Source: a virus
Taxonomy: Duplodnaviria > Caudoviricetes
Strand: one strand, 5' to 3'
IMG/VR virus record: IMGVR_UViG_3300021368_000027
Span: 1 to 56,299 of that record
Length of the DNA stretch: 56,299 bases
Position numbers and translations under genes: made by a program. Below, in pieces: positions 904 through 18,784 of the stretch (the stretch's first letter is position 1; every line of letters starts with the position of its first letter). The notes beneath the pieces were generated by a model that worked only from the letters and a program-made list of their open reading frames with translations, ran no database searches and was not told the origin of the DNA.

Positions 904-1271
904 TATTCGTTCTCACCTTCTTTGGGTGGTAGATAGAAGATGCCACCACCGCTAGTAACATCTACTTTATCTACCTTACCAAGTCCTGCTCTGTCAAGCA
1001 AGTCTTTTGCTGCTACCATCTTTTCTTTTATGCCTAGCTCCGTTGGATCATACAACGCACCAACCATAGCCATAGCAGCTTTAGGAGCAGTACGTGCAAA
1101 AAATGTGCGAGTCTTCTCACCGATCTCATCCTTTAGAGATTCAACAATCGCTGCAGTGTTGCTGTTATCGCCGTAACCTGCCAGTTTTTTAGCAGCGACA
1201 ACATCACCATTAGCTTCATCAAATAGTACATCTAGAAACCGCTGCTGCTTATCTGTTAAATTTCTCGCCAT
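903..1271 (-). CDS. terS: Terminase small subunit
   Basis: N-terminal LTDKQQRFLD...AAKKLAGY HTH pattern typical of TerS, AAKDLLDRAG oligomerisation helix, located upstream of terL. Confidence 0.75.
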   Translation of the reverse strand: MARNLTDKQQRFLDVLFDEANGDVVAAKKLAGYGDNSNTAAIVESLKDEIGEKTRTFFARTAPKAAMAMVGALYDPTELGIKEKMVAAKDLLDRAGLGKVDKVDVTSGGGIFYLPPKEGENE

Positions 1272-1413
1272 ATATTGCTTCCCTTATTTGTGACCGACCT
1301 ATACCTAAGTCATTCAACTCTCTGTCGGTCATCATGTGCATCATACGAAAGTCTGCACGTTTTTGCTGTCTAATACAATGGTTATCCCATAGACGTTTTA
1401 ATAAATTTTTCAT
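1249..1413 (-). CDS. DUF1127 (YjiS-like) small protein, 54 aa (below ORF-track cutoff)
   Basis: MKNLLKRLWDNHCIRQQKRADFRMMHMMTDRELNDLGIGRSQIREAIYGEKFNR; matches the DUF1127 core (L/M)xDR(E)LxD(I/L)G(I/L)xRxxI; RBS AAAGGAGA 7 nt upstream. Confidence 0.85.
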   Translation of the reverse strand: MKNLLKRLWDNHCIRQQKRADFRMMHMMTDRELNDLGIGRSQIREAIYGEKFNR

Positions 1414-3945: not shown

Positions 3946-4624
3946 ATTCCTCTCCTACCTGTAATAAGGTATCCCAAAACTCTTTGTCTAATTCATAACC
4001 TACAACAAATAATGCAGGGTCTTCTCTGTATTTCTTTATAGCGTTCCTGCCCATGAGCAACTTACCAGTACGTGCATCATTTATAGGACACGGAGTATTG
4101 GCTAACATCATACTCCTGAACACTGTAGGATCTTGACACATCACTGAGATGGCAGACACCTGTAATCCTAACCCACCAACCTGTTGAGGTAAACCCAGCA
4201 ATCTAGCATTCTTCCTGCGATTGCAGTTGGGGTCTTGCTGCATCTCACCGTGAGACAGGCCAATTATATTTAACTGAAGCCCTCTGCTCTTCGGGATTAA
4301 GCAAGAGTCATTACCTCCCCCACCCATCATTGTTGGAGCTATGCTGGACATTACAGGACTGCTGCCTGGAGATGAACCTGCTCCGTTATAATTTATGACT
4401 TCACTTTGATTGTTTGAATCTACAACTGAATCTTCATAGTTGTTAGAAAAGTCACCTGTAACATCATTACCAGTATCTGTAGTCGTTGTGGTATTGTTAG
4501 TTATGCCATCATCTAGCTGCGTCTGTTCCTGTGCAGATACCGTAGTCGTCCACAAAACTAGGACTAATACACATAAGCTTAGTAGCTGCGTCTTTATGAC
4601 CGATAAGTGCGAGTGTTTGTGCAT
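3815..4624 (-). CDS. Secreted cysteine-containing protein
   Basis: Signal peptide ending TTVSA; low-complexity T/N/S linker; SIAP...DSC...CNRRKNAR...SVMCQD...TPCP motifs (4 Cys). Confidence 0.75.
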   Translation of the reverse strand: MHKHSHLSVIKTQLLSLCVLVLVLWTTTVSAQEQTQLDDGITNNTTTTTDTGNDVTGDFSNNYEDSVVDSNNQSEVINYNGAGSSPGSSPVMSSIAPTMMGGGGNDSCLIPKSRGLQLNIIGLSHGEMQQDPNCNRRKNARLLGLPQQVGGLGLQVSAISVMCQDPTVFRSMMLANTPCPINDARTGKLLMGRNAIKKYREDPALFVVGYELDKEFWDTLLQVGEEYDEAFTEVTTTKRSLSDQFRSSKRRGDGPSANNDRSGEDRPTN

Positions 4625-4745
4625 CTTGATTTCTCTGACATACAGTATCTCCCACCCTGCATGACGCTGTATATGTTATTGTTTGACAAGCTGTAACTAT
4701 CATTAATACGCATAGTTGTACGCAGAGTTTTAGCTTTGTCAACAC
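4509..4745 (-). CDS. Putative small lipoprotein
   Basis: MLTKLKLCVQLCVLMIVTAC lipobox-like signal, further Cys residues; overlaps next gene by ~115 nt. Confidence 0.5.
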   Translation of the reverse strand: MLTKLKLCVQLCVLMIVTACQTITYTASCRVGDTVCQRNQDAQTLALIGHKDAATKLMCISPSFVDDYGICTGTDAAR

Positions 4746-4747
4746 TT

Positions 4748-5008
4748 TTATCCTATGCCTTTACGTTTTCTTTCAGGGTCTAGTACTTCATGCTTTTCCA
4801 GGAAGCCCTCAAGGTACATAGCTCTTTCAATATGATCTAAAGTAAATCTTTTTCCTAGCCTAGCTTCCAGCGCCTCACGCACATAGAATACATCAGACTT
4901 AGGAATGTGTACACGTCTAAGGCGTTTATTGTCACCTTCCGCTATGGCATCGTAAAACTCTTCTATTACATCTTCAGAAGAGTACATACTTAGTTTCTGT
5001 TTATACAT
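4748..5008 (-). CDS. Hypothetical protein (86 aa)
   Basis: Start re-assigned to ATG 5008 (MYKQKLSMYSSEDVIEEFY...) after AGGTAGGA; the upstream extension in the track lies in a hairpin RNA element. Confidence 0.7.
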   Translation of the reverse strand: MYKQKLSMYSSEDVIEEFYDAIAEGDNKRLRRVHIPKSDVFYVREALEARLGKRFTLDHIERAMYLEGFLEKHEVLDPERKRKGIG

Positions 5009-5018
5009 TATCCTACCT

Positions 5019-5142
5019 AAAAAGGGGATATGTGTAGTATCTACATGTAGGAGGAGGAGACATGGAGGAAGAGTAACACACAGATTACTACACATACCCT
5101 AGTGTAACACTTATTGTTTGTTACATTATATTGTGTTACGTA
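5019..5142 (-). ncRNA. Candidate small RNA / leader with anti-Shine-Dalgarno (cuckoo-like) motifs
   Basis: Promoter immediately upstream; long stem 5100-5086 with 5039-5025 enclosing UACUCUUCCUCCAUGUCUCCUCCUCCUACAUG; ends in CCCCUUUUU; 5' hairpin GUAACAC/GUGUUAC. Confidence 0.6.
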
Positions 5143-5148
5143 ATAATA

Positions 5149-5177
5149 AGTATACAGATATACAGTAACACTGTCAA
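5149..5177 (-). promoter_or_regulatory. Sigma70-type promoter TTGACA-N17-TATACT (leftward)
   Basis: TTGACA 5177-5172, TATACT 5154-5149, 17 nt spacer, TG just before -10. Confidence 0.8.
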
Positions 5178-5248
5178 GTTAAACTTTACCTATGTCCAAT
5201 TATTTATTTAGTTTATTATTTATATCGTTTAACTTAAAAAGTTTAACT
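5177..5248. repeat. Perfect 11-bp inverted repeat flanking an AT-rich spacer
   Basis: AGTTAAACTTT (5177-5187) and AAAGTTTAACT (5238-5248), 50 nt apart. Confidence 0.7.
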
Positions 5249-5267
5249 ATCCTGCTCCTGCTCCGCA

Positions 5268-5295
5268 GTTATACCTAAAAAATGGGGTCTGTCAA
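5268..5295 (-). promoter_or_regulatory. Sigma70-type promoter TTGACA-N16-TATAAC (leftward)
   Basis: TTGACA 5295-5290, TATAAC 5273-5268. Confidence 0.7.
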
Positions 5296-5369
5296 GTATA
5301 AAAGAGACTAACTGCGACAATTTGTACCTCTCAAAAAACCACTTCTGTGTAGATATACGTATACACGTA

Positions 5370-5381
5370 GGGGTATACCCC
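5370..5381. other. GC-rich palindrome GGGGTATACCCC, possible genome-end/packaging site
   Basis: Perfect 12-bp palindrome in the otherwise AT-rich divergent region; function is inference. Confidence 0.35.
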
Positions 5382-5532
5382 CCAGTGGCCCTCGCCGCCC
5401 CAACGATTAAGGGCTGCTTTTACAGTTTAGACAGTGTTTTACTAGCTAAGTTACTGTATTTATTACACTTTTATACTGATATATCCTCAATATACTACTA
5501 AAAAGTGTTGTATTTGTGCAACATTCTAGAAA

Positions 5533-5589
5533 TGTGATCACAAATCAAGGAAGGATGCACAGTATATCCCCCCTTTTGTGATCACAAAT
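5533..5589. repeat. Duplicated palindrome TGTGATCACA (13-nt direct repeat TGTGATCACAAAT)
   Basis: Copies at 5533 and 5577, 44 bp apart; second extends to TTTGTGATCACAAA. Confidence 0.7.
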
Positions 5590-5627
5590 AAGCATACCCA
5601 CCCTATACAGTATATATATAATAATAA

Positions 5628-5672
5628 GAACAAACATAGAACAAACACTACAAAGCAGAACCAAACAAGAAC
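5628..5672 (+). promoter_or_regulatory. Two tandem alphaproteobacterial LexA (SOS) boxes, GAAC-N7-GAAC
   Basis: GAAC-AAACATA-GAAC (5628-5642) and GAAC-CAAACAA-GAAC (5658-5672). Confidence 0.7.
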
Positions 5673-5728
5673 AACTAAAAAAAGAATCGTTTAATTACAA
5701 CAACTTATAAAAAAGTTTAAAAAAGTAC

Positions 5729-5758
5729 TTGCAATCTATGTTGCGGTATGCCCTTAAT
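5729..5758 (+). promoter_or_regulatory. Candidate early promoter (rightward)
   Basis: A-tract UP-like element, TTGCAA at 5729-5734, CTTAAT at 5753-5758. Confidence 0.45.
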
Positions 5759-5877
5759 AGTACATCGAAAGCGACAAGTTAAAGCTTGAGAGTAGGCAAC
5801 AAGCCCTTGATCCTCAGATTAACAGCGTCCTTTTGACGGCTCGGTGAAATGCCCTAGCAAATACTAAAACTAAATAC

Positions 5878-5906
5878 TTGACTACAAATACAAATACTGA
5901 AAGACT
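5878..5906 (+). promoter_or_regulatory. Second candidate early promoter
   Basis: TTGACT (5878-5883), 17 nt, AAGACT; preceded by AAATAC. Confidence 0.35.
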
Positions 5907-6110
5907 GAATACAACATAACGAAAGATAATTGATACGATACAAAGTGAAACACATATACAGCGATAGCACATAGGCGTGGAAGTGAGAATACACTACAAG
6001 CCCAGTCGATAAGACACGCAATCAATAAACGTAGATGCTACTAAGATTGTGAGAGAGTTGACTTACTCATAACCACTGAAAAGGTGCTAACCTACTGTTT
6101 AACTGTTTCT

Positions 6111-6196
6111 GTATTTCTTGGACACATTAGCAGCTAATTTAGGCCAACCTAAACTTATGCTTGACATATGGGTTGCTGATGTGTCTTACTAAATAT
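6111..6196 (+). other. Branched RNA stem-loop directly before the first early RBS
   Basis: GACACATTAGCAGCT (6121-6135) pairs with GGTTGCTGATGTGTC (6171-6185), 15 bp with 3 G-U; inner hairpins TTTAGG/CCTAAA and TATG/CATA. Confidence 0.6.
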
Positions 6197-6207
6197 AGGA
6201 GGAAGCT

Positions 6208-6351
6208 ATGCAAGAATATTATTTAAGAGTTATGGACTGTGAGACTGGCTATAGCGAAATGTGGAAAGTAAAAGCTAATAGCGAACAAGAAGCTATTGAC
6301 AATGTAGAAAATAACTTTGAGAATAAAGAAGTAATAGAGGAGGACTTCTAA
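6208..6351 (+). CDS. Small acidic early protein, 47 aa (not in track)
   Basis: MQEYYLRVMDCETGYSEMWKVKANSEQEAIDNVENNFENKEVIEEDF; RBS AGGAGGA; TAATG coupling. Confidence 0.75.
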   Translation: MQEYYLRVMDCETGYSEMWKVKANSEQEAIDNVENNFENKEVIEEDF

Positions 6352-6602
6352 TGAAAATACTTGAAGGACAAAGGTATGACCGCAACGGATTGTTTGCTAT
6401 ACCTGAGACTATTGACGATTTGACAGACCAACTAAACAGCCCAGAACAATGGGTTGCCTATGGACTGACACATAATTTTCTAGCTACTGAGTTTAACAAA
6501 ACGTTGGACAATATACAGAAAGAGCTTGACAAGAAATACATATTCCACTCATTATCGGATATGATAAAATTTGTAAAAGAATTGGAGGATGCTAATGTCT
6601 AA
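6351..6602 (+). CDS. Hypothetical early protein
   Basis: 83 aa ORF, RBS GAGGAGGA, coupled to neighbours. Confidence 0.75.
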   Translation: MKILEGQRYDRNGLFAIPETIDDLTDQLNSPEQWVAYGLTHNFLATEFNKTLDNIQKELDKKYIFHSLSDMIKFVKELEDANV

Positions 6603-7323
6603 CTACAAGCTACTTGGAGTAGGAACCAACGCCAAAACTATCAAGGGTGATGGCTCCGAATATCTCACAGCTATCTTATACATGACGCCTTACAAAGTTA
6701 TGGTAGATGGCAAGCTATTCAACTCATGCTCTATGGCTGCTATAGCAAGCTGTATTGAGGGTTGCTTATACACTGCTGGACGTGGGAAGTTTAGCAACGT
6801 ACAGACAGCTAGACAGCGTAAAGCTGAATGGTTCTATCGTGATCGTGTAGGCTTTATGAAGCAGCTATATCACGACATACAGAAGTTTAGTAACTACTGC
6901 AAGAAACGTGGCATACAACCTTGTGTCAGGCTCAATGGTACTACCGATATTAGGTGGGAGTTGATACCTGCAATGCCACACAACAAGATGAATATATTTC
7001 AGGAGTTTCCAGAAGTACAATTCTATGACTACACAAAGATACCAAACAGGAAAGTTGCTGACTATCCAAACTATCATTTGACATGGAGTTATAGTGCTGC
7101 TAATCCTAAGTATGAGGAATTATTCTGGAATGTTATACGCAATGGCATGTCCGTTGCTGTAGTATTCCGCAAGCCTGTCAACATGACTACATGGCGAGGC
7201 TACAATGTTGTGGACGGTGACAAAGATGACCTTCGTTTCCTAGACCCACAACAATCAATCGTTGCACTCTATGCAAAGGGTGCAGCTAAACATGACAGCA
7301 CAGGCTTTGTGCAAGATATATAG
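6595..7323 (+). CDS. gp88-like protein (Cys cluster, possibly radical-SAM-related)
   Basis: NAKTIKG, CSMAAIASCIEGCLY, VRLNGTTDI, FYDYTK, VDGDKDDLRFLD, AKGAAKHDSTGFV motifs; ATG 6595 after GGAGGA. Confidence 0.75.
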   Translation: MSNYKLLGVGTNAKTIKGDGSEYLTAILYMTPYKVMVDGKLFNSCSMAAIASCIEGCLYTAGRGKFSNVQTARQRKAEWFYRDRVGFMKQLYHDIQKFSNYCKKRGIQPCVRLNGTTDIRWELIPAMPHNKMNIFQEFPEVQFYDYTKIPNRKVADYPNYHLTWSYSAANPKYEELFWNVIRNGMSVAVVFRKPVNMTTWRGYNVVDGDKDDLRFLDPQQSIVALYAKGAAKHDSTGFVQDI

Positions 7324-7335
7324 GAAGGAGATATC

Positions 7336-7551
7336 ATGTTTATAATATTTGCAACTAAACCAACTCAGGACGGATGCAAAGGTTTCCGTTTCAACTTTCT
7401 TGGCAAGAAGGGTATCTACCGCAAGCGTAGTGTTATCAATCGCTATGGTAGGACACAAGGTAAGGTTATGACTGGCTATCACTTTGGCAAGCGTAGTCTA
7501 TACCTTGAGAATGCTGAAGCCTATCGCAAGCTGTACCATTTCGCAGGATGA
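7336..7551 (+). CDS. Basic hypothetical protein
   Basis: 71 aa, RBS AAGGAGA. Confidence 0.7.
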   Translation: MFIIFATKPTQDGCKGFRFNFLGKKGIYRKRSVINRYGRTQGKVMTGYHFGKRSLYLENAEAYRKLYHFAG

Positions 7552-7628
7552 TAGGACTGCTTATCTTATGGCTAGGTGGGATCATAATGTTTCTTAGCCT
7601 AGCCCAACTCATTCAGTACTTACATTAG
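7548..7628 (+). CDS. 26-aa single-helix membrane peptide (not in track)
   Basis: MIGLLILWLGGIIMFLSLAQLIQYLH; ATGA overlap, fills the gap. Confidence 0.5.
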   Translation: MIGLLILWLGGIIMFLSLAQLIQYLH

Positions 7629-7637
7629 GAGTGCAGT

Positions 7638-7778
7638 ATGGAAATAGAAATCAATGATTTTACAAATCAAGAAATTGATTATTTATCAGAATTAATATTA
7701 GAAAAATTGAATGATATGGGATACAACACCGAAGCATTCAGTTTTACTTTGTCAGTGCAATTTGAGGAGGATGCGTAA
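7638..7778 (+). CDS. Small acidic protein, 46 aa (not in track)
   Basis: MEIEINDFTNQEIDYLSELILEKLNDMGYNTEAFSFTLSVQFEEDA; RBS AGGAG; TAATG coupling. Confidence 0.7.
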   Translation: MEIEINDFTNQEIDYLSELILEKLNDMGYNTEAFSFTLSVQFEEDA

Positions 7779-8056
7779 TGGCTAAAGGATTTGACGTAAA
7801 GAATAACATGGCAGTGAAAGCACTAGCCAAGAAACTAAACATGGAAGTGGGCATGAGTACAAGCATGGCTGTTGAGGAAGCTATGACTTACTTGCTAACA
7901 TCATTCCACAAGAGAAACGTGGATAGTATCAAGGCTGCTGAACTTCTTAGATGGTGGCTCAGTGACTTCCAAGATGAGGAACTTGAATACTTTGAGACTA
8001 GAGTAGACTTAGCAAAGCAAGTTAAGCTTGTAGATACAAGGAGGAAACAAGCATGA
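7778..8056 (+). CDS. Hypothetical protein
   Basis: 92 aa, RBS GAGGAGGA. Confidence 0.75.
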   Translation: MAKGFDVKNNMAVKALAKKLNMEVGMSTSMAVEEAMTYLLTSFHKRNVDSIKAAELLRWWLSDFQDEELEYFETRVDLAKQVKLVDTRRKQA

Positions 8057-8475
8057 AAGATTTCGTAATGGATGACAAAACAGGAGCGAGAGTGTTCCGC
8101 AACCCACATCATGACTTTGACGCTAACACGTGGCGAGGTGTGCAGCAAGGTAACTCTTTGTTGCTACACTGGATAACACACTGGATAGACAAGCATGAGT
8201 GGGATGGTGGCAAAGTGTCACTCGATGGGTGGATGGAACTGCAATACGAATACAGTGCAGGTATGAAGCCCAGACCTATGAAAGGTAAGGTATGTGAGTA
8301 CGATGGTGCGTATGATAGTGAGGACGGTGACCCACCACTTCAACCACTACTCATGGTCAAGATTATATTGGATGCTACTGGTGGTGTAGGCAAGAGGTTA
8401 GTCTACATATATGACTATGGTATCGTGGCTATACCTATCATATCAGGTGGATACAAAGTAGTAAGGATGGACTGA
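8053..8475 (+). CDS. Hypothetical protein
   Basis: 140 aa, RBS AGGAGGA, ends EDGDPPLQP...IYDYGIVAI...VVRMD. Confidence 0.75.
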   Translation: MKDFVMDDKTGARVFRNPHHDFDANTWRGVQQGNSLLLHWITHWIDKHEWDGGKVSLDGWMELQYEYSAGMKPRPMKGKVCEYDGAYDSEDGDPPLQPLLMVKIILDATGGVGKRLVYIYDYGIVAIPIISGGYKVVRMD

Positions 8476-8669
8476 TGAAGATTGACTATCAATACGAAGT
8501 ACAAGATGAACTACCGCTTGACCATGAGGACAGCCTAGATCATTGGGCTAGACTACTGGCTGACCAAGAGGTAGGTGATGATGAAGAAAACTACGAGTGG
8601 GATTACCATTACGAAAACTATTGGATGCAACTTGACGCAGAATATAACTATGACATACTTAGACCATAA
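8475..8669 (+). CDS. Highly acidic, aromatic-rich small protein (possible DNA mimic)
   Basis: 64 aa, about one third D/E, many Y/W. Confidence 0.7.
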   Translation: MKIDYQYEVQDELPLDHEDSLDHWARLLADQEVGDDEENYEWDYHYENYWMQLDAEYNYDILRP

Positions 8670-8680
8670 AGGAGGACACA

Positions 8681-8863
8681 ATGCCTGAGTATAAAGTAAC
8701 TGCCACAATGGACGTGGGATACACTGCTATTATCGAAGCTGATACTGAAGAGGAAGCATGGGCGATAGCACGTGGTGACAGCATATCAGACCCTGACTGG
8801 GAAAAGACAGACGATGGACACGACTGGACATTGGAAAACATTTGGGAGGTTAAAGATGCCTAG
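8681..8863 (+). CDS. Small acidic protein with IEAxxEEEA motif
   Basis: 60 aa, RBS AAGGAGGA. Confidence 0.75.
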   Translation: MPEYKVTATMDVGYTAIIEADTEEEAWAIARGDSISDPDWEKTDDGHDWTLENIWEVKDA

Positions 8864-9101
8864 ATATATTATAGTAACGGAGACAATGTGTGGTGACAGC
8901 TACGAGTGGACAACTGATGAGGATGGCAACGAGGCTATCTATACATACGAGAGTGAAGAAGCTGCTGAGAAAGAGTTAGCTGATGATATCAAAGCTATCA
9001 ATGAGGACAGAGAACCAGAGGATTATGTACACAGGGATGAATACTTTATCCAAGAGTACACTGGTAACGAGACAGAGGAGGGCAGAGGTAATGCTACCTG
9101 A
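8856..9101 (+). CDS. Acidic hypothetical protein
   Basis: Start re-assigned to ATG 8856 (MPRYIIV...) after GGAGG. Confidence 0.7.
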   Translation: MPRYIIVTETMCGDSYEWTTDEDGNEAIYTYESEEAAEKELADDIKAINEDREPEDYVHRDEYFIQEYTGNETEEGRGNAT

Positions 9102-9360
9102 TGAAATGGAAGCTGAGAAAAACAGAAAGATAGTCGTTGCCCAGGCTGACGAGATAGATATATTAAAGAACAATATCAAAGAGTTACAAGAGCAACTTAA
9201 TGCTGCACATAAGAGGATAGCCTCACTCAATGAGGACTGGGGCGACATGCGTGACAAACTAGATTCAGCAAACAAGCACAATAAAAGCTTGACACAAAGT
9301 TTGTCCAACGCTTACGATGACATATCTAATCTGATAAAGGAGGACTTAGAATGCAGATAG
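9091..9360 (+). CDS. Coiled-coil hypothetical protein
   Basis: Start ATG 9091 (MLPDEMEAEKNRK...), heptad pattern. Confidence 0.7.
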   Translation: MLPDEMEAEKNRKIVVAQADEIDILKNNIKELQEQLNAAHKRIASLNEDWGDMRDKLDSANKHNKSLTQSLSNAYDDISNLIKEDLECR

Positions 9361-9557
9361 ATGAACTTAAACCTGAGTATAAACAAATCATACGAGAGGT
9401 AGTAGTAGAACTATTCAAAGAGGTAGCATCCAAGCAAACGTTTGGAGTTAGCGATGATGTGCTACAACTAGATGAACACCTACATGAATGGACTAGTAGA
9501 AAGCTAGACAAGTACAAAGTAAATGTGTACGGTGTATCATTACAGGAGGGTTTCTAA
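9351..9557 (+). CDS. Hypothetical protein
   Basis: 68 aa, RBS AAGGAGGA. Confidence 0.7.
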   Translation: MQIDELKPEYKQIIREVVVELFKEVASKQTFGVSDDVLQLDEHLHEWTSRKLDKYKVNVYGVSLQEGF

Positions 9558-9808
9558 TGCAACCACAAAACATGAGCGCACACCAACGTGTGAAGTATGA
9601 ACCAACAAGAATCAAACGAGGCAGACAGTGCAGACTATTTGGTGTGGACTTCCACAGTGTAGCAGAAGCTGCTCGATACTGGAAGATATCATACTCATGG
9701 GCTAAAGAACAAATTGATGAACGTCAAAACATGGACAGCTTACCCAAGAGATATATACACAAGGGTAAATACAGAGGACAATGGAGGACAAAACATGAAG
9801 CTGTATAG
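9557..9808 (+). CDS. Small HTH (NUMOD1-like) DNA-binding protein
   Basis: FHSVAEAARYWKISYSWAKEQI resembles the FxSxxEAA helix-turn-helix. Confidence 0.55.
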   Translation: MQPQNMSAHQRVKYEPTRIKRGRQCRLFGVDFHSVAEAARYWKISYSWAKEQIDERQNMDSLPKRYIHKGKYRGQWRTKHEAV

Positions 9809-10127
9809 GAATAGCGAAGGTGTATGGGCAGGTACACAAGCTGATGCACGTAAGATATGCGGCAAGACTTATAGCACTGTCGATGTACCAACCGACAAGC
9901 CTAACCTATTGAAGTTCCTTAATCTCAATCAGGTTGGCTCCTATACTAGTAACGGTAAGCAAGATACTATTACAGGAGATATTGATACCTCAAACAAGAG
10001 TGCAATGTCTTGGATACGATGGAGCCATGACCATATGTGCAGAGGACAGTATGAAGAAGCAAAAGAAATGTTAAGAAAAGGATTGGAGTTAGCTTTAAAT
10101 GATAGAACTACTACTAGCGATGGTTGA
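9795..10127 (+). CDS. Hypothetical protein
   Basis: Start ATG 9795 (MKLYRNSEGVWAGTQADA...VPTDKPNLLKFLN) after GGAGGA. Confidence 0.75.
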   Translation: MKLYRNSEGVWAGTQADARKICGKTYSTVDVPTDKPNLLKFLNLNQVGSYTSNGKQDTITGDIDTSNKSAMSWIRWSHDHMCRGQYEEAKEMLRKGLELALNDRTTTSDG

Positions 10128-10374
10128 GGAACAGAACCCTATCCATAAGTACTGCATGTCCAAGCATGAACACTGGACTGGCAGAGCAGCGTGTGTCCAA
10201 GAGTTACGACATGCCCAACGCAAGATGGAAGTAGAAGAACTACGACAGTTCTTGAAAGAGAACCCACACTACAGATACCCAGGCATGGCTTTGCCTAACG
10301 GAAAGATAAAACCTCTTGACGTTTGTTGGGGATCTGCTAAAACTTATGGCACAAACAAAGAGAGGAGATGCTAA
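10099..10374 (+). CDS. Hypothetical protein
   Basis: 91 aa ORF tiling with neighbours. Confidence 0.65.
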   Translation: MIELLLAMVEEQNPIHKYCMSKHEHWTGRAACVQELRHAQRKMEVEELRQFLKENPHYRYPGMALPNGKIKPLDVCWGSAKTYGTNKERRC

Positions 10375-10529
10375 TGAAGTATGAAGTATGGTTTGGACAG
10401 AATGGTAAGTGGTTTGGTTACCACACATTCAAATATAAAATGGATGCTGAACGTTATGAGGAACGTTATAAAACGGTATTCCCTAACTTAACTGTAGAGA
10501 TACGGAGGAAAGAGTATGGTTACTGCTAA
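10374..10529 (+). CDS. Small hypothetical protein, 51 aa (not in track)
   Basis: MKYEVWFGQNGKWFGYHTFKYKMDAERYEERYKTVFPNLTVEIRRKEYGYC; RBS GAGGAG, TAATG coupling. Confidence 0.7.
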   Translation: MKYEVWFGQNGKWFGYHTFKYKMDAERYEERYKTVFPNLTVEIRRKEYGYC

Positions 10530-10686
10530 AGTATTACCTATACACCAACTCATTAAGCAGACACAGCGTAGGAAAGATGACTACGAATGGGAAGGTGACT
10601 TCGAGAAAGCACTGCTTGAAGGTGAGTACTTAAAGTTATTAAAAGAAGATGAAGCAAAGGGGATTACATGGTATCCGAATTTCTAG
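10516..10686 (+). CDS. Small hypothetical protein, 56 aa (not in track)
   Basis: MVTAKVLPIHQLIKQTQRRKDDYEWEG...GITWYPNF; RBS GGAGGA. Confidence 0.7.
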   Translation: MVTAKVLPIHQLIKQTQRRKDDYEWEGDFEKALLEGEYLKLLKEDEAKGITWYPNF

Positions 10687-10769
10687 CTAACCTATTTCCT
10701 ATCACGTTTGCAGCGTTGTACTTTTTTGGATGGGTTTACTTGGTGTATGCACATGTTAAAGGAAAGTAA
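10668..10769 (+). CDS. 33-aa membrane peptide (not in track)
   Basis: MVSEFLANLFPITFAALYFFGWVYLVYAHVKGK; fills the gap up to 10772. Confidence 0.55.
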   Translation: MVSEFLANLFPITFAALYFFGWVYLVYAHVKGK

Positions 10770-10771
10770 CG

Positions 10772-11026
10772 ATGGACAAGATACGAATGCGCCTTTCGAT
10801 GATGTTACACATTGGTTGGGTTACCTATCTCGTAAGGATAATGATAGCACTAAGTGTTCTACTGAACGTGGTACTTGGTGGAAGATTAAATCAAACCTTT
10901 TCAGCTAGGAACTGGGAATGGAAACGTAATAATAAATACAATCTAGTGCGACCAATAGACACATTGCTAGGTGATGGACATTGTAGTAGAGCATGGTCAT
11001 ACTGGAAGGTAAGGAGGAAATGGTAA
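10772..11026 (+). CDS. Conserved small phage membrane protein
   Basis: LNVVLGG..NQTFSAR.W...IDTLLGDGHCSRAW pattern; hydrophobic N-terminal half. Confidence 0.7.
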   Translation: MDKIRMRLSMMLHIGWVTYLVRIMIALSVLLNVVLGGRLNQTFSARNWEWKRNNKYNLVRPIDTLLGDGHCSRAWSYWKVRRKW

Positions 11027-11943
11027 TGAAGAATATCCCCAAGCAGTCAGCCACCCTGACACAGATAGTAGATTTTTACTTGCACTCTGACGTGTTTCGT
11101 AGACTTTCTTCCTCCTCCCAAAAGGACTACGAGTCACACTTGCAAGCTGCTGTGCTGACACAGGTTGAAGGCAAGGCTCTTGGGGGTTATCGTTGTAAGA
11201 ACTTGAAGGTTCGACACATCACACAAGCATACGATCAATGGCTGTTGACTGGCACTCGCACTGCCAACTACAGACGCAGTGTCCTTTCCGCTGCGTGGAG
11301 ACATGCCATGAGGTATGATGTAATGATTCACAATCCAATCAGCTTAGTAAAGACTGAAGTACCTGAACCTCGTAGGGTACACTGGACACGTGAACAGGTG
11401 TCACTCTTTCTTGACACAGCTTACAGCGATTTTCGATGGCGCAGCATTGGACTGATAGTTCATATGGCATACGACTGGGGTCAACGTGTAGGAGATGTTC
11501 GGCTTCTTACATGGGATAGTTTAGACTTAAACAACTGTCGTATTGATATGACTCAGAGCAAGCGTAATGCAGAGGTACACCTCCCGATCTCTCATGGCTT
11601 GTGTTCAATGCTGCGTCAGCAGAAGGAAGACTTTGGATTCCAAGAGTACGTTGCTCCCAGGGTGAAGCCTAGAGCAGGTGCTTACACACCATATGACAAA
11701 GAAGAAATAGCTAATCTTATCAACGTGTTACTAGATGAAGCTAACCTACCACGTGAACTTACAGCTATGGATTTACGTAGGACAGCAGTGACTGAGATGA
11801 TGGAAGGTGGTGTTGACTTGGCAGGTATCATGCAAGTAACAGGTCACAAAAACACAGCATCAGTCAAGCCTTACATGGTGAACACATTCAGTGGTGCAAG
11901 CAAGGCACTAGCAGCGAGAGGTAAACAAGATGAAGATGCGTGA
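11026..11943 (+). CDS. int: Tyrosine recombinase / integrase
   Basis: GQRVGD (R), QSKRN (K), MDLRRT (HxxR box with His replaced by Met), TGHKN (H), VKPY (Y); N-terminal core-binding helices. Start ATG 11026 after AGGAGGA. Confidence 0.9.
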   Translation: MKNIPKQSATLTQIVDFYLHSDVFRRLSSSSQKDYESHLQAAVLTQVEGKALGGYRCKNLKVRHITQAYDQWLLTGTRTANYRRSVLSAAWRHAMRYDVMIHNPISLVKTEVPEPRRVHWTREQVSLFLDTAYSDFRWRSIGLIVHMAYDWGQRVGDVRLLTWDSLDLNNCRIDMTQSKRNAEVHLPISHGLCSMLRQQKEDFGFQEYVAPRVKPRAGAYTPYDKEEIANLINVLLDEANLPRELTAMDLRRTAVTEMMEGGVDLAGIMQVTGHKNTASVKPYMVNTFSGASKALAARGKQDEDA

Positions 11944-12745
11944 GTTTGTTGACAGTCTAGCTCTCAAAGATGACGAGAGATACAGAGGTGACTGCCCTCA
12001 ATGCAGAGGCAAGAATACTTTTACTGCTGCCAACATACTTGGTGAGATAAGGTACAACTGTTTCAAGCTAGGCTGTACTGTTGGTGGTATCTATGATACA
12101 GACATGACAGCAAGAGAGATACAACACCGTCTGAAAGAACAGCAAATAGCACGTGCATACACAAACATAAAGAAAGAGAAGGAGACTATGGAGATACCAC
12201 CCTATGTCGTGTCGCCCAAGGCACAACACACCAAGCACCAACGCTTTGTTAGACGATGGGGATTAGCAATAGCTGATACCATGTATGATGTGAAGGATGA
12301 ACGTGTTGTCTTTCCTATCAAGCACAAAGGTAGAATTATTGATGCTGTGGGCAGGGCTGTAGGTAAGAAGCAGCAACCCAAATGGTATCGCTACACAGGT
12401 GAGGCTGATTACTATATGCATGGTAACGGTAATATATTGTTGATAGTAGAGGACGTACTGTCAGCTATCATAGCTACCCAAGAAGTACCATACATTACAG
12501 CTATGGCTATACTAGGCACAAGCCTGAGTCCTAAACATATGGAAAAGATACAAGAGTACAACAGAGTTATCATAGCCCTTGACCCTGATGCTATTGGTAA
12601 GACAGTTGAGTATCGCAGAGAGATAGAGTTGTGGACAGGTAACAAGACCACAGCTATGAACTTACTAGATGATATAAAGTATAAGATGGAAGAAGATATT
12701 GACAAACTAAAGGAGTTATGTAATGAAGTTAGCAGTAACCATTGA
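11930..12745 (+). CDS. DNA primase (Zn finger + TOPRIM)
   Basis: CPQC...CFKLGC zinc site; IVEDVLSA, ILGT, LDPDAIG TOPRIM motifs. Confidence 0.9.
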   Translation: MKMREFVDSLALKDDERYRGDCPQCRGKNTFTAANILGEIRYNCFKLGCTVGGIYDTDMTAREIQHRLKEQQIARAYTNIKKEKETMEIPPYVVSPKAQHTKHQRFVRRWGLAIADTMYDVKDERVVFPIKHKGRIIDAVGRAVGKKQQPKWYRYTGEADYYMHGNGNILLIVEDVLSAIIATQEVPYITAMAILGTSLSPKHMEKIQEYNRVIIALDPDAIGKTVEYRREIELWTGNKTTAMNLLDDIKYKMEEDIDKLKELCNEVSSNH

Positions 12746-13001
12746 CGTAGACGGAGACATAATGTATGTACCAGAGGGTGCAGTGTTCGAGAACTTTCCC
12801 AAGCCTAAGTTGTTTGACAACATGAAGGATGCGGAAGAGGAACGTGCTAAGTGGAACACTGGTGTGATAGTAAATTATGAGACAGGTAGGTGTGTAGAAA
12901 AGATAAGATCATTCACTGATGCAGAGAGAGCGAGAGCAGAGGAAAGAGCGAGGATAAACAGCAATGATGGAACTAGCACTGATAAAGACTCTACTAGATA
13001 G
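12723..13001 (+). CDS. Hypothetical protein
   Basis: 92 aa between primase and helicase, RBS AAGGAG. Confidence 0.7.
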   Translation: MKLAVTIDVDGDIMYVPEGAVFENFPKPKLFDNMKDAEEERAKWNTGVIVNYETGRCVEKIRSFTDAERARAEERARINSNDGTSTDKDSTR

Positions 13002-14184
13002 AGAGTTCTACAATCAACACAAGGGGATACGTTGCCCTGATAAGATCTTTAGCAAGGATGTACGTAAGATTAAGCAAGCATTGGATACAGCGATGGAGAC
13101 ATATGACAATGACTTCAATGTATCTGACTTGCAAGCGGTGTTCAATCGTATCAATGCAAGCATGACCACCGCTACACGTACAGCATATGAAGATCTGTTC
13201 AAGCGTATAGAATTAGCTGAACCTATCAAAGGTGAGATAGCAGAGGACACACTGTCTCAGTTGTTTCAGCAGCACGTGGGTGACCTCGTTGCTAACCTGG
13301 GGTTTGACTTTGTGAATGGTGCAGAGAATAGCCTTGAACCATTACGTAAACTATTAGAGGAATACAAAGATGACTTTACTCCAAATCTTCGTGTCGAGTG
13401 GGATGATCATAGTCTTGATACTGTACTTGATGCAACGGCACTTGATTCGAAATGGGCATTCAATATATCCAGTCTGGCTCGTAGGGTGGAGGGTATCAGT
13501 GGTGGTCATCTTATTCTGGTTGGCGCTCGTCCTAATACTGGAAAGACTAGCTTTCATGCCTCACTTGTAGCAGCAGAGGGTGGCTTTGCACATCAAGGTG
13601 CTAAGTGTATTGTACTGTGTAATGAAGAAGCATACACACGTGTGGCTGCACGATACATCAGTGCTTCATCTAACATGACAATGACTGAGGTACGTACCAA
13701 CAAAGCCCTAGCATCCAAGCGATACCATCCTGTGTCTGAGAACATACAGTTCAAGGATAGTACTGGCAAGGGCATGGACTGGGTAGAGTCTGTCGTTAAG
13801 TACGAGAAGCCTGACATAGTTATACTAGACATGGGTGACAAGTTTGCTGACATCAAGTCAGAACGTTCAGACATTACACTCAAGGCAGCAGCTATCCATG
13901 CACGTAACATAGCCAAGCAGTATGACTGTGCTGTGATATGGATGTCTCAACTATCAGCAGAAGCAGAGGGCAGGGCTGACCTGAACCAAGCTATGATGGA
14001 AGGTAGTAAGACAGGTAAGGCAGCAGAGGCTGACCTGATGGTACTCATTGGTAAAACACAGCAAGCAGAAGGAGAAGAGGAAGACCCTATCAGATACTTG
14101 AACATAGCTAAGAACAAACTGAATGGCTATCAAGGTAAGATTACCTGTGTGCTTGACGGTTCAAGATCAGTGTACTCAGCATGA
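12964..14184 (+). CDS. Replicative DNA helicase (DnaB/SF4)
   Basis: Walker A GARPNTGKT, IVILD, MSQLS, IAKNKLNG motifs. Confidence 0.93.
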   Translation: MMELALIKTLLDREFYNQHKGIRCPDKIFSKDVRKIKQALDTAMETYDNDFNVSDLQAVFNRINASMTTATRTAYEDLFKRIELAEPIKGEIAEDTLSQLFQQHVGDLVANLGFDFVNGAENSLEPLRKLLEEYKDDFTPNLRVEWDDHSLDTVLDATALDSKWAFNISSLARRVEGISGGHLILVGARPNTGKTSFHASLVAAEGGFAHQGAKCIVLCNEEAYTRVAARYISASSNMTMTEVRTNKALASKRYHPVSENIQFKDSTGKGMDWVESVVKYEKPDIVILDMGDKFADIKSERSDITLKAAAIHARNIAKQYDCAVIWMSQLSAEAEGRADLNQAMMEGSKTGKAAEADLMVLIGKTQQAEGEEEDPIRYLNIAKNKLNGYQGKITCVLDGSRSVYSA

Positions 14185-16232
14185 GACTAGTGCTAGACGT
14201 AGAGAACACTGTCACTAAGCGTGACGATAAGGTTCACCTTGATCCCTTTGAACCTACCAATCATTTAGTACAGGTGGGTATGCTAGATGCTGATGATCCT
14301 AAAGCTACCCTGACTATCAAGACACTAGATCACAATGAAGCTACTGACTTCACAGGCTTTCAAAGACTAGAGGTACAGTGGAACTTAGACAACACTGATC
14401 TACTTATCATGCACAATGCACAGCACGACTTAATGTGGCTGTGGGAATGTGGCTTCAAGTATGACGGTGCTATCTATGACACTATGCTTGCTGAGTATAT
14501 CTTAGATCGTGGGCAGAGAAACGGACTAAGCCTCCAGGCTTGTGCAGAACGTAGACAACTAAAGGTACAGAAGGATGATACACTCAAGAAGTATTTCAAA
14601 GAAGGTAAGAACACAAACGAGATACCGTTGGAAGAACTCTGCTTTTATCTTGAGCATGACTTGCTTACTACTTGTGAGTTGTTCCACGCTCAAGAAGCAG
14701 ACTTCGCCAAGCCTGAAGCTGCCTCCCTTAGTACAATCAAAAGAGTTACCTTCAACACCTGCAAGACCCTCACAGAAATCTATATGGCAGGATTCAAAGT
14801 CGATCTTCCAGAGTTGGAAAGAGTAGCAAAGGAGTTTGAAAATGAGAAAGCTGAAATCGAAACACGTCTGCAAAAGAAAGTCAGGGAAGTTATGGGGGAT
14901 ACTCCGATCAACCTACGTTCACCTGAACAGAAGTCGCAGGTATTATTCAGCAGAAGAGTACATGACAAGAAAGAATGGGCTGATCTCTTCGAGTTCACTA
15001 CGACACAAGAAGAGTTTAAGGATGCCGTTAAAGCCAACTCCTCACCGATCTACAGGACACAGGCATACACCTGCCCTAGTTGCGAAGGGCAAGGTAAAGT
15101 ATACCGACTTAAAAAAGATGGAACAAAGTTTGCTAGACCGAATAAATGCAAAGATTGTAATGCACAAGGATACAAACTAAAGGATAGCAAACAGATAGCA
15201 GGGCTACGCTTTACTGCACCAAGTAAGAAGTGGGTCAGTGCTAATGGATTCAACACAGGAAAGGATGAACTAGATGTACTTTCTTCAACTGCTAAGAACA
15301 ATAGAATGGACGAGGCTTTTAATTTCCTTTCTGACCTTAAACGTCATAATGCTGTCTCTTCTTATCTATCTGCTTTTGTCAACGGAATACGGACATACAC
15401 TAAGGCAAACGGATTCCTGCACGTTGGACTTACTCAGCATATTACAGCCACTGGACGTTTCAGTGGAAGAAATCCCAACATGCAAAACATGCCAAGAGGA
15501 GGTACATTCCCAGTAAAGAAAGTATTTGTATCACGATTTGATAATGGATTAATAATGGAGGCCGACTTTGCACAACTCGAATTTAGGACAGCAGCGTTCT
15601 TGGCACAGGATGAAACAGCGATGCGAGAGATTGCAACTGGTTTCGATGTACATGCTTACACAGCAAAAGTTATTACTGATGCAGGGCAACCAACATCACG
15701 TCAAGAAGCTAAAGAACACACGTTTGCACCGCTCTTTGGAGCAAGCGGTTATGGACGTACAAAAGCTGAAGCAACGTACTACACCCACTTCAATGAAAAG
15801 TACAAAGGCATAGCTAACTGGCACAGGAACTTAGCTGACGAGGCACTACGCTTCATGAAGATAACAAACATATCAGGCAGACAGTACGCTTTCCCTGATG
15901 TGACAAGACGTAGCAGTGGTGTACCAACGCACTTCACAATGATAAAGAACTATCCAGTGCAGGGCTTTGCTACTGGTGATGTAGTGCCAGTGGTACTCAA
16001 TGAAATGCATGAACGTTTACGACATATGAAGTCGTGTTTAGTTAACACTGTACATGATTCTATGGTAGTAGATGTACATCCTGACGAGAAAGACTTAGTG
16101 TTGTCTCTTGTTTGGACTATGAACCAAGACTTAAACAATATAATAGAGGAGACATATGGTATAAAGATGAATGTTCCTATGCTTTTAGAAGCAAAGATAG
16201 GAAAGAATTGGCTTGACACAGTTGATATATAG
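14181..16232 (+). CDS. polA: Family A DNA polymerase with 3'-5' exonuclease and DnaJ-type Zn-finger insertion
   Basis: Exo I DVE, Exo II HNAQHD, Exo III YLEHD; TATGRFS, NMQN, motif A DFAQLEFR, motif B RQEAKEHTFAPLFG, motif C VHDS; CPSCEGQG...CKDCNAQG insertion. Confidence 0.96.
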   Translation: MRLVLDVENTVTKRDDKVHLDPFEPTNHLVQVGMLDADDPKATLTIKTLDHNEATDFTGFQRLEVQWNLDNTDLLIMHNAQHDLMWLWECGFKYDGAIYDTMLAEYILDRGQRNGLSLQACAERRQLKVQKDDTLKKYFKEGKNTNEIPLEELCFYLEHDLLTTCELFHAQEADFAKPEAASLSTIKRVTFNTCKTLTEIYMAGFKVDLPELERVAKEFENEKAEIETRLQKKVREVMGDTPINLRSPEQKSQVLFSRRVHDKKEWADLFEFTTTQEEFKDAVKANSSPIYRTQAYTCPSCEGQGKVYRLKKDGTKFARPNKCKDCNAQGYKLKDSKQIAGLRFTAPSKKWVSANGFNTGKDELDVLSSTAKNNRMDEAFNFLSDLKRHNAVSSYLSAFVNGIRTYTKANGFLHVGLTQHITATGRFSGRNPNMQNMPRGGTFPVKKVFVSRFDNGLIMEADFAQLEFRTAAFLAQDETAMREIATGFDVHAYTAKVITDAGQPTSRQEAKEHTFAPLFGASGYGRTKAEATYYTHFNEKYKGIANWHRNLADEALRFMKITNISGRQYAFPDVTRRSSGVPTHFTMIKNYPVQGFATGDVVPVVLNEMHERLRHMKSCLVNTVHDSMVVDVHPDEKDLVLSLVWTMNQDLNNIIEETYGIKMNVPMLLEAKIGKNWLDTVDI

Positions 16233-16240
16233 TGTATAAC
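16213..16240 (+). promoter_or_regulatory. Promoter TTGACA-N16-TATAAC for the recombination/nucleotide-metabolism genes
   Basis: TTGACA 16213-16218, TATAAC 16235-16240; overlaps the polymerase 3' end. Confidence 0.75.
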
Positions 16241-16274
16241 TAAGATCTCTTTGACTCTATAAAAAGGATATAGA

Positions 16275-17147
16275 ATGAGTAATGAATTAGCAATAGCAAC
16301 AGAACGTGGTCAATCAATGGCTGAACTTATGGGTGTATCTTCTGCACCTAGCACTGAGTATACTCCAAGCATATCACGTTTGGGAATGCTTCATCAACCT
16401 ATCATGGGTGAGGTAGATCTCAATGGTAAGATGATAAAGACAGAGGTAGTACCTGTAGGTGCATTCACCCTCAAGACAGGGGATGATATTGTCTACAGTG
16501 TAGGTGTAACTGTCCGTGTCTTTGCCCAACGCAATCAGTGGCAACGTTGGAATAGTGACACTGAAGAGATGGAAAAGTCTGTGATGTCTAACACTCTCAA
16601 CGGTGACTTGAAGGATAGCATTGGTGGGTTTAACTTAGGTAGACCTACTGGTTACATCGAAGACTTCAACTCACTAGACGAGGCTACCAAGCAAGTGATA
16701 CGTTCAGTCAAACGTGTCGTAGTCTACTACGGTACAGTCACACTGGACAACCCAATGAATGAGAAGGGTGAAGCTGTTGATGCAGTAGAGTCCGTACCAT
16801 TTGTATTAGATGTCAAGAACCGTGACAGCTTGAAGAGTATCAATGGTGTGATGGGTCACCTAAAGAAGAAGAACTTACTACCTATCTTATCTACTATAAA
16901 ACTAGAGGGTGTCGAAGATAGCATACCTACTGGTGCTAAGTTTGGTAAGATACATGCTACCCTGGGTGAGCCTGTGGAGATTAGTAGTGTTGATAATGAT
17001 ATGCTCAAAGACTTCTTAGAACTTATTGAGTATAGCAATGGTAAGATCTTAGACCTACACCATGAACGTGCTAAAGGACACTCTGATGAAGATGAAGCTT
17101 TGGTACAAGAGATACTAGACAATGAGTTCGTAGAGGTGGATGCATAA
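16275..17147 (+). CDS. Putative ssDNA-binding/annealing protein
   Basis: 290 aa with acidic C-terminal tail, located between polymerase and exonuclease; function inferred from position. Confidence 0.55.
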   Translation: MSNELAIATERGQSMAELMGVSSAPSTEYTPSISRLGMLHQPIMGEVDLNGKMIKTEVVPVGAFTLKTGDDIVYSVGVTVRVFAQRNQWQRWNSDTEEMEKSVMSNTLNGDLKDSIGGFNLGRPTGYIEDFNSLDEATKQVIRSVKRVVVYYGTVTLDNPMNEKGEAVDAVESVPFVLDVKNRDSLKSINGVMGHLKKKNLLPILSTIKLEGVEDSIPTGAKFGKIHATLGEPVEISSVDNDMLKDFLELIEYSNGKILDLHHERAKGHSDEDEALVQEILDNEFVEVDA

Positions 17148-18010: not shown

Positions 18011-18431
18011 ACATAACAAAAAGTTATATCGTAGCGGTCTTGAACAAGAGGCTGCTGCGTTTTTAAAGACTAGACAGAGGACGGTAGAGTATGAGAAGAT
18101 AAAGATAGAGTGGGAAGATCTACGCTATCGTACATACACACCAGACTTTGAATTAGACAACGGAGTAATAATAGAAACTAAAGGAATATTTAGTCCTGCA
18201 GATAGACGCAAACATTTAGAAATACAGAGGCAGCATCCAAAGCTAGACATCAGGTTTGTATTCAGCAACGCTAAACAAAGACTTTATAAAGGAGCCAAGT
18301 CTAGGTACTGTGACTGGTGTGAACAAAAAGGTTTCAAGTGGGCGCACCGTGTTATACCTGAAGGTTGGTTATTAGAGAAGGGCAAGCGTATGAAAGTGCA
18401 GCGTGTCGTAGTGAAAAGGAGATCCTCATGA
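17994..18431 (+). CDS. Endonuclease I / Holliday junction resolvase (T7 gp3-like)
   Basis: YRSGLE, YTPDF, IIETKG, DIRFVF motifs. Confidence 0.92.
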   Translation: MALPRRHNKKLYRSGLEQEAAAFLKTRQRTVEYEKIKIEWEDLRYRTYTPDFELDNGVIIETKGIFSPADRRKHLEIQRQHPKLDIRFVFSNAKQRLYKGAKSRYCDWCEQKGFKWAHRVIPEGWLLEKGKRMKVQRVVVKRRSS

Positions 18432-18784
18432 GTCATGAGATACAAGATAATGAAGTTGCAATAATCATAAAGCCTGACATAGATGCAGAAGGTAACTGGA
18501 CAGGAGAACTAAAGACAGGTTTGTTGTTTGGTAATAGTAATCATCCTATTGCTACTAGGAATGCTATGGACTTAGCTTTAACTATGGCAGCATCTATAAA
18601 TGTAATAGAAGATTTTCCTGACTTGTATGAGTACTTTGAAGAAGCCAGACATGAGTTGCTCAAGGAAATGTTTCCTAAACAGTATGCTGAATCAGAGCTT
18701 GCAATCAAGGATGAAATGGATTATACCACAGAGGGTAACGTAATCAAGTTAACCAAGTGGACAAAGACAATGGGTGAAGCATGA
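18428..18784 (+). CDS. Hypothetical protein
   Basis: Start ATG 18428 (MSHEIQDNE...) after AAGGAGA. Confidence 0.75.
   Translation: MSHEIQDNEVAIIIKPDIDAEGNWTGELKTGLLFGNSNHPIATRNAMDLALTMAASINVIEDFPDLYEYFEEARHELLKEMFPKQYAESELAIKDEMDYTTEGNVIKLTKWTKTMGEA

Follow-up and report, generated by a model that had tools for sequence, protein, structure and literature searches.

The 56,299-nucleotide (nt) virus record IMGVR_UViG_3300021368_000027 (here the window, meaning this whole stretch of DNA) carries on its minus strand, just ahead of its leftward genes, what its own sequence and those of its relatives mark as a genuine, conserved and structured RNA, predicted to be transcribed leftward from a strong sigma-70-type promoter. 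The RNA consists of two hairpins, the second of which presents a large open loop rich in CCUCC. We favor, at a probability of about 0.4, a role as a leader-derived riboregulator acting against Shine-Dalgarno (SD) sites, which would resemble the cuckoo small RNAs (sRNAs) of alphaproteobacteria in its action without belonging to their family. The nearest named relatives of the window are the HMO-2011-type roseophages CRP-207 and CRP-603 (~70% DNA identity across the region), and the HMO-2011-type phages have been described as a dominant and widespread marine viral group (PMC9038755). The text of PMC9038755 makes no mention of promoter, RNA polymerase, sRNA, non-coding, intergenic or DUF1127, and in the literature searched we found neither a description of this RNA nor a paper describing DUF1127 in these phages. 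The comparisons presented below extend the element to an RNA motif shared across the family, absent from Rfam and from that literature, and within one large subgroup no other non-coding feature next to the structural operon is as conserved. The motif provides a concrete handle on the timing of gene expression in these phages and, since isolates bearing it are already in culture together with their hosts, a direct test is feasible whichever reading holds.

A structured RNA behind a near-consensus promoter

All the features of the element are read on the minus strand. The promoter, P1 (TTGACA-17-TATACT; 5149–5177), has its −35 box at 5177–5172 and its −10 box at 5154–5149. It had been pointed out in a preliminary description of this DNA. 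It is close to consensus, agreeing with it at 11 of 12 positions, and it is the best of the six promoter-like sites in 4600–6400. Six sites are what chance yields in this interval (6.5 in shuffled sequences), and the call therefore rests on the quality and the conservation of the site rather than on the count. In this regard, the −35 box, the spacing and the TATACT box are kept in most of the relatives compared, the rows of the L066 type being different.

Downstream of P1, the predicted transcript folds into hairpin 1 (5104–5139), with a stem of 7 base pairs (bp), GUAACAC/GUGUUAC (5139–5133 with 5110–5104), and a 22-nt A-rich loop. It is followed by hairpin 2 (5026–5099), in which 5099–5086 pair with 5039–5026 and 5084–5076 with 5048–5040, a total of about 23 bp when the window is folded, of which the consensus structure has 19. 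A 5′ hairpin followed by a long stem had been proposed before, and the fold bears this out, the long stem lying within 1 nt of the coordinates then given. The open loop of hairpin 2 (5049–5075; 27 nt) is made almost entirely of C and U, with two CU tracts, CUCUUCCUCC and CUCCUCCUCCU, placed around AUGU and with three occurrences of CCTCC, and the element ends in a short, terminator-like tail (5019–5025) composed of CC and UUUUU (5023–5019). The loop is unpaired in the minimum-energy folds of the window and of seven relatives, so that its motifs are predicted to be accessible. The mini-hairpin CAUGU/ACAUG that the preliminary description had drawn inside the loop does not hold up: 74.2% of its cells are paired across the relatives, none of its pairs is compensatory, and the consensus leaves the whole loop open.

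The window sequence by itself is only mildly unusual in its fold, the 141-nt segment reaching −34.8 kcal/mol (z −2.56), with 3 of 200 shuffled sequences being as stable. The case for an RNA rests, therefore, on the relatives.

Conservation and covariation

The tally of the element was made on the 80 best IMG/VR loci among the relatives, at least 560 in number, of an 86-amino-acid protein encoded by the first leftward gene. Strong matches to a covariance model built in this analysis were obtained in 68 loci, many of them training sequences of the model or their near kin, and weak matches in two; in four more the element is recognized by eye, five have no upstream sequence and one (L047) has no element. 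This places the element in at least 74 of the 75 IMG/VR relatives having upstream sequence. It is also present in CRP-207, CRP-603 and CRP-2, and was not found in CRP-1, CRP-345, CRP-9, CRP-13 or HMO-2011, where neither a scan for pyrimidine tracts nor the model detected other hairpins with a CU loop (best E 0.25).

Base pairing was evaluated in an alignment (A3) of 49 sequences, 45 of them distinct, comprising 26 pairs and 1170 cells. In it, 96.2% of the cells are paired, as compared with 14–60% in slid controls, and both sides have changed in 11 of the 26 pairs (92 cells), values that none of 500 column shuffles reaches. The helix of hairpin 1 is paired in 100% of its cells, with double changes in two of its seven pairs; it is near-invariant in the main clades, the other five pairs never varying. 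Helices 2 and 3 are paired in 94.7% and 94.8% of their cells, helix 2 showing compensatory changes in 8 of its 13 pairs. Over the 26 pairs, there are 111 G-U cells and 6 A-C cells, which fixes the transcribed strand: selection on the structure acts on the minus-strand RNA and not on the DNA or on the other strand. Seven divergent representatives folded singly adopt the same shape, with an open loop of 25–27 nt (z −5.0 to −7.7), and in CRP-603 and the L062 clade, where the stem sequences of both hairpins are wholly different, single-sequence folds give the two hairpins in the same place. The covariation and the G-U asymmetry together support the earlier proposal of a conserved, leftward structured RNA that exposes a CCUCC-rich loop behind a strong promoter.

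Over the 45 distinct relatives, the loop has a mean length of 26.5 nt and is 89% pyrimidine, with CCUCC in 43 of them and two CU tracts in all 45. The conservation of the loop among related phages that had been anticipated is thus one of composition and size, kept while the stems drift, and suggests that the loop is selected for its composition. In the clade formed by L066, L070, L072, L077 and L080, a CUCCCUCCU-type tract is found in the hairpin 1 loop as well, both hairpins displaying CU motifs.

These data bear directly on the view that there is no RNA function, and that the site is a DNA-level element, such as an operator array or an origin, or a chance palindrome. The element does lie in a 1.2-kb AT-rich non-coding stretch with repeated short motifs, as that view would have it. 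The ratio of G-U to A-C cells, the compensatory changes in 11 pairs and the conserved placement directly behind the promoter nevertheless speak against it, and we regard it as close to refuted.

The leader of the leftward operon

At 56.3 kb, the window amounts to a complete virus record (completeness 100), circularly permuted. Rightward genes span 6208–22473; the leftward ones descend from 5008 to 3 and, because of the permutation, resume at 56299 and end at 22666. The RNA element stands at the very head of this leftward unit of ~39 kb, which contains small genes, a DUF1127 gene and the structural genes, among them those of the major head protein, the tail fibers and virion proteins. The first leftward gene (4748–5008, minus strand), encoding the conserved 86-amino-acid protein, to which no function is assigned, starts with ATG at 5008, and AGGUAGGA is found 3 nt past the U run. 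Across the relatives, the first leftward start codon lies 11–31 nt (median 12) past the U tract, too close for a promoter of its own to fit in between. The U run itself, counted within 12 nt after the stem in the 45 distinct relatives, has a length of 3 in 11 rows, 4 in 24, 5 in nine and 8 in one. With such a weak U run and a start codon so near, the free-standing sRNA of ~120 nt in the preliminary description gives way to an element that, judged by its placement, physically makes up the 5′ leader of the operon of structural genes. In L040, L041 and L056, a different gene (236–244 amino acids) follows the element and the 86-amino-acid gene comes behind it, so the element belongs to the promoter and operon head and not to one particular gene. 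RNA-library contigs of relatives (four runs from two studies; single contigs of 151–194 nt with 4–12 differences) cover 4977–5207. As they may come from DNA carry-over, reach upstream of the predicted P1 start and coincide with the most conserved stretch, they are not evidence of transcription, of transcript ends or of abundance, and nothing is to be read into the flanks that they leave bare.

A leader in this position invites comparison with the late leader of phage lambda, with its PR′ promoter, 6S RNA, tR′ and Q, and also with N and nut. The phage element and the PR′ leader each have a strong constitutive promoter, a short structured RNA and a terminator-like hairpin directly upstream of late genes; unlike in lambda, no Q-like protein is known here, and 6S RNA of lambda is not known to carry a conserved loop of anti-SD type. 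On this model, the element would be an antitermination-gated leader of the late operon, in which transcription starts constitutively and RNA polymerase is stopped or paused early at the promoter-proximal, terminator-like hairpin, until a later phage factor, which may recognize hairpin 1 or the heptamers around the promoter, permits read-through into the structural and lysis genes. In that case, the short RNA would be incidental, and the function of the loop would lie with the factor or with pausing. The element does head a unit with the major head and tail-fiber genes, there is no space for another promoter before the first gene, and hairpin 1 is near-invariant in the main clades, with five of seven pairs constant; the lack of any single-subunit RNA polymerase match in the genome points the same way, as a weak negative, given that control genomes gave none either. 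A conserved 26-nt pyrimidine loop would, however, be superfluous in a plain terminator, the run of U is weak and no antiterminator protein was identified; furthermore, CRP-1, CRP-345, CRP-9, CRP-13 and HMO-2011 keep the same gene order without the hairpin, and a strong internal leftward promoter is present at 41781. We consider this explanation the main rival of an anti-SD function and a serious one, though somewhat less probable; if it were true, the late switch of these phages would be defined by this leader.

The proximity of the first gene also raises the question of a purely cis function, in which the element would be a 5′ stabilizer, a processing site for RNase III or RNase E, or a site of ribosome standby or occlusion for that gene. 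The element always lies 11–31 nt before the first start codon, whichever gene follows, and RNase III cleaves stems of about the length of the one seen here (~20 bp). The first gene, moreover, has no SD in many clades (TTGACAATG). None of these functions accounts, on the other hand, for the conserved CCUCC loop, and the pairing of the loop with the start region of the first gene, considered as a candidate, was rejected as weak and not conserved (median −5.3 kcal/mol, range −10.5 to −1.0, shuffles about −3.1). A role restricted to cis has, in our estimate, only a slender chance. As for the start of the 86-amino-acid gene, in most clades other than that of the window it begins with TTGACAATG, which contains an in-frame TTG and ATG, with no SD and an A-rich run ahead (for instance, L001 1747–1760, L002 1741–1755 and many IMG/VR loci). 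The same start motif is kept in CRP-1, CRP-345 and HMO-2011, all of which are without the RNA.

Proposed pairing with Shine-Dalgarno sites

The reading that we prefer, a leader-derived anti-SD riboregulator, takes the loop of hairpin 2 as the active part of the molecule. The loop would pair with ribosome-binding sites of the GGAGG type and block initiation on the early mRNAs of the phage and presumably on host mRNAs, and the leftward phage genes would escape, being without GGAGG sites. A short form would be generated where transcription stops incompletely at the weak U run, or else when the leader is processed, and read-through would produce the operon mRNA.

The distribution of SD sites in the window was assessed on 74 genes whose starts were approximated by the first start of each open reading frame (ORF), GGAGG being sought up to 22 nt upstream. 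It precedes 13 of the 19 early rightward genes (6208–11943), one of the 14 middle genes and none of the 41 leftward genes, and the SD difference between early and leftward genes has a Mann-Whitney p of ~8e-7. The division that had been noticed between early genes on GGAGG sites and late genes without them is, therefore, real. The same applies to the details given with it: alternative starts at 1775 and 2032 give two leftward genes a GGGAGG site, corresponding to the exceptions mentioned near 1785 and 2040, and AAGGAGA-type sites are found before the major head gene, its neighbors and the DUF1127 gene. The duplex energy of the loop with initiation regions averages −15.2 kcal/mol for early genes versus −8.4 kcal/mol for leftward genes, and the best pairing among the 74 genes (−25.8 kcal/mol) is that of the site before the gene at 10516, in line with the match to the loop reported near 10504. 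The loop thus offers what characterizes a trans-acting anti-SD sRNA, an accessible C/U-rich seed complementary, by predicted pairing, to early SD sites. Two leftward genes, at 32459–32990 and 45354–45967 (minus strand), contain dense runs of GGAGG in their coding strand, with GGTGGTGGAGGCGGTGGAGGC-like repeats in the upstream contexts, and show the strongest predicted loop pairing in the genome, at −30.2 kcal/mol.

A number of known regulators share one or another trait with this proposal. LhrC of Listeria pairs with SD regions through redundant CU-rich sites, and its terminator loop holds one of these (PMC4132741). The phage RNA is similar in presenting CU-rich loop sites as SD-pairing elements, a pairing that is predicted here. 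It differs in that its sequence and host are unrelated, LhrC uses a UCCC motif, and LhrC genes are free-standing whereas the phage RNA is an operon leader. RsaE and RNAIII are other sRNAs with C-rich loops. The c4 antisense RNA of phages P1 and P7 pairs through loop sequences around a ribosome-binding site and blocks translation (reviewed in PMC12197685); unlike the RNA described here, for which no specific conserved target was found, c4 has one specific target (ant). In phage T4, the endoribonuclease RegB selectively inactivates early mRNAs at GGAG SD sites, sparing most middle mRNAs and all late ones (PMC3014915). The early/late logic is the same as that of the proposed switch, although RegB is a protein nuclease and not an RNA, and T4 is unrelated.

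The pairing of the loop with SD sites would, if true, make this RNA a phage-encoded global translational regulator, linking these phages to the alphaproteobacterial cuckoo/DUF1127 system. In a broader version, a single leader-derived RNA of a marine phage, whether lytic or temperate, would adopt the principle by which the cuckoo riboregulators of its host clade work and be a general anti-SD that silences the mRNAs of the host as well as the early ones of the phage itself, leftward mRNAs without GGAGG being still translated; it would combine host shut-off with an early-to-late switch, possibly with help from the DUF1127 protein (CcaF1-like) of the phage. We regard this broader version as unlikely; if it were correct, the RNA would be a counterpart of T4 RegB.

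Several observations weigh against an anti-SD riboregulator. A timed switch fits poorly with a promoter as near to consensus as P1, which would make the RNA together with the early mRNAs. The run of U is short (3–5 in 44 of the 45 rows) and begins 3 nt past the stem, and with the next start codon 11–31 nt beyond, a free sRNA is an assumption; transcript ends, binding and regulation are, likewise, only predictions made from sequence. CRP-9 (L084), which is without the RNA, has 12 rightward GGAGG-type starts, ten of them in its first 7.1 kb, and CRP-207, which has the RNA, shows only four. The specific link between the RNA and the early GGAGG sites put forward in the preliminary description is, for this reason, not sustained, and strong early SD sites appear as a wider habit of the group. 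Across nine genomes, the presence of the RNA shows no clean correlation with the early GGAGG bias. No orthologue is common to the ten best predicted targets of the window and those of CRP-207, CRP-603 or CRP-2, and no conserved specific phage target was found in the comparison of the four. The orthologues of the 10516 gene keep a GGAGG-type or a weaker site in four of five complete relatives, with no change matched to the loop, and GGAGG is not avoided within the leftward coding regions.

Relation to cuckoo RNAs and DUF1127 proteins

Cuckoo RNAs are defined by two to four adjacent hairpins of 24–50 nt, each with CCUCCUCCC in its loop, and the family matcher of Reinkensmeier and Giegerich sets limits of 24–50 nt for the hairpin, 9–27 nt for the loop, at least 6 bp for the helix and at most 10 nt for the linker (PMC4615179). 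The phage RNA is like the members of this group (CcsR1-4, NfeR1; Rfam ar14, RF02344; Rhodobacterales and Rhizobiales) in that its loop shows CCUCC-type anti-SD motifs and its stems drift by compensatory change. The hosts are also related in this respect, since CRP-207, CRP-603 and CRP-2 infect Rhodobacteraceae, a family listed with DUF1127-linked cuckoo RNAs (PMC8034643, PMC4615179). Unlike cuckoo RNAs, it has a single 27-nt loop with two tracts instead of one 9-mer, it is phage-borne, and it heads a structural operon.

The comparison with the family rules is as follows. In the window, CU tracts occur only in hairpin 2, the loop of hairpin 1 being A-rich; the closest approach to the two-hairpin layout is seen in the clade of L066, L070, L072 and L077, with the CUCCCUCCU-type tract in hairpin 1. 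The loop of the window has CCUCCUCCU, which agrees with CCUCCUCCC at eight of nine positions; the exact CCUCCUCCC is absent from it and, among the 21 distinct loops listed, appears in 2. At 74 nt, hairpin 2 exceeds the limit of 50, while the 27-nt loop, the helices and the 4-nt linker fall within the limits. No Rfam family reached its gathering score in the window or in the loci of seven relatives. The ar14 model (gathering score 58.8 bits) gave no row at E up to 10 in 4600–5700, where only chance microRNA and snoRNA rows appeared, and when run directly on the genome it missed the element, its sole match (5.6 bits) falling in a coding region at 45355–45371.

One cuckoo subgroup adjoins DUF1127 genes in Rhodobacteraceae and in some Rhizobiales families, and some cuckoo RNAs are derived from 5′ untranslated regions (PMC8034643, PMC4615179). 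The layout of the window is reminiscent of this, as the transcription unit of the element itself contains the gene of a small DUF1127 protein (1249–1413, minus strand; Pfam PF06568, 25.3 bits versus a cut-off of 23.3). This gene lies, however, 3.6 kb downstream of the element, at variance with the adjacency seen in the CIN1 subgroup. With the ar14 model silent, a 74-nt hairpin, a single motif-bearing loop and a distant DUF1127 gene, the suggested membership in the cuckoo/CcsR/ar14 family is not supported. We therefore file the RNA as cuckoo-like: by analogy, it may work as a cuckoo RNA does, without being one of the family. Regarding DUF1127 itself, the domain is present in seven of nine genomes with the element and in four of six without it. 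It was found in all seven CRP roseophages examined, four of which are without the RNA; it was not detected in two of the five complete IMG/VR genomes that carry the RNA, and neither HMO-2011 itself nor MW202701 has it. Its link to the RNA is suggestive only.

The same protein enters into a further explanation, according to which the RNA would be a decoy or platform in which the large pyrimidine loop acts jointly with the U tail and the A-rich loop of hairpin 1 to titrate or recruit Hfq, S1 or a protein of the DUF1127/CcaF1 type, including that of the phage. This would fit a loop conserved in composition and size (25–27 nt) and not in exact sequence, in a phage that encodes a DUF1127 protein, and it has parallels in CcaF1, a DUF1127 protein that binds RNA and affects CcsR levels, and in RSs0680a, which is bound by Hfq (PMC8034643, PMC4615179). 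Set against this, DUF1127 does not track the RNA, as the above counts show, and the binding of the candidate proteins is hypothetical only. S1, for its part, prefers A/U-rich RNA. A function as a protein decoy is, on balance, improbable.

Promoter surroundings

About 120 nt upstream of P1, a second leftward promoter in tandem, P2 (TTGACA-16-TATAAC; 5268–5295), can be read from the sequence, with the −35 box at 5295–5290 and the −10 box at 5273–5268. P2 is not in the list of the promoter scan, because its last −10 position is not T, and TTGAC-N16/17-TATAAC(T) is found in 14 of 15 representative relatives, L057 having a variant hexamer. Just downstream of P2 lies a purine-rich block, GCGGAGCAGGAGCAGGA (5250–5266, minus strand), conserved in most clades. 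The L062 and L066 clades have GTAGCAGTAGCAG in its place and their loops are still CU-rich, so that block and loop do not covary; on these grounds, the idea that the loop pairs over a long range with the conserved GGAGCAGGAGCAGG block behind P2 was discarded.

The AT-rich spacer between the two promoters (5178–5262, minus strand) contains a conserved TGGACATAGG box (5198–5189) and repeated GTTTAAC/GTTAAAC heptamers, one of them abutting the −35 box, which look like operator sites that co-vary with a regulator. Other clades carry different repeated heptamers around the promoter (GTAACAC, AGTTGCAAAT). The number of GTAACAC copies in the window, 11, equals chance genome-wide; their clustering does not, four being placed within 5073–5171, one in the P1 spacer, two forming hairpin 1 and one at the start of the large loop. 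Clade-specific heptamers that flank and overlap P1 look like candidate binding sites for a protein regulator, and in view of them the claimed lack of such a regulator is doubtful. The four clustered copies, one within the promoter spacer, and the distinct heptamers of other clades are also points in favor of a late leader gated by antitermination.

Other features of the region

The 86-amino-acid protein has no Pfam match above the cut-off and no PHROG match; the Atlas gave no usable match, and Foldseek against the PDB gave a best E of 2.5, which is meaningless. Its AlphaFold2 model is weak (pLDDT 65.4, pTM 0.47). A scan for hosts or prophages among genome contigs with this protein returned three contigs of metagenome-assembled genomes, two of them labeled Flavobacteriales or Flavobacteriaceae, from which nothing was learned on the host; the covariance model matched one weakly (E 0.03) and another marginally (E 0.74), with no match in the third.

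The ~0.9 kb between the divergent units (5300–6200) has no ORF of 60 amino acids or more and no Rfam match, and holds a conserved GC-rich block (~5362–5405) and several promoter-like sites. Near the right end of their records, CRP-1 (53975–53985) and CRP-345 (54649–54659) have in common a short hairpin, TCTCTCCC-TTTA-GGGTGAGAGA.

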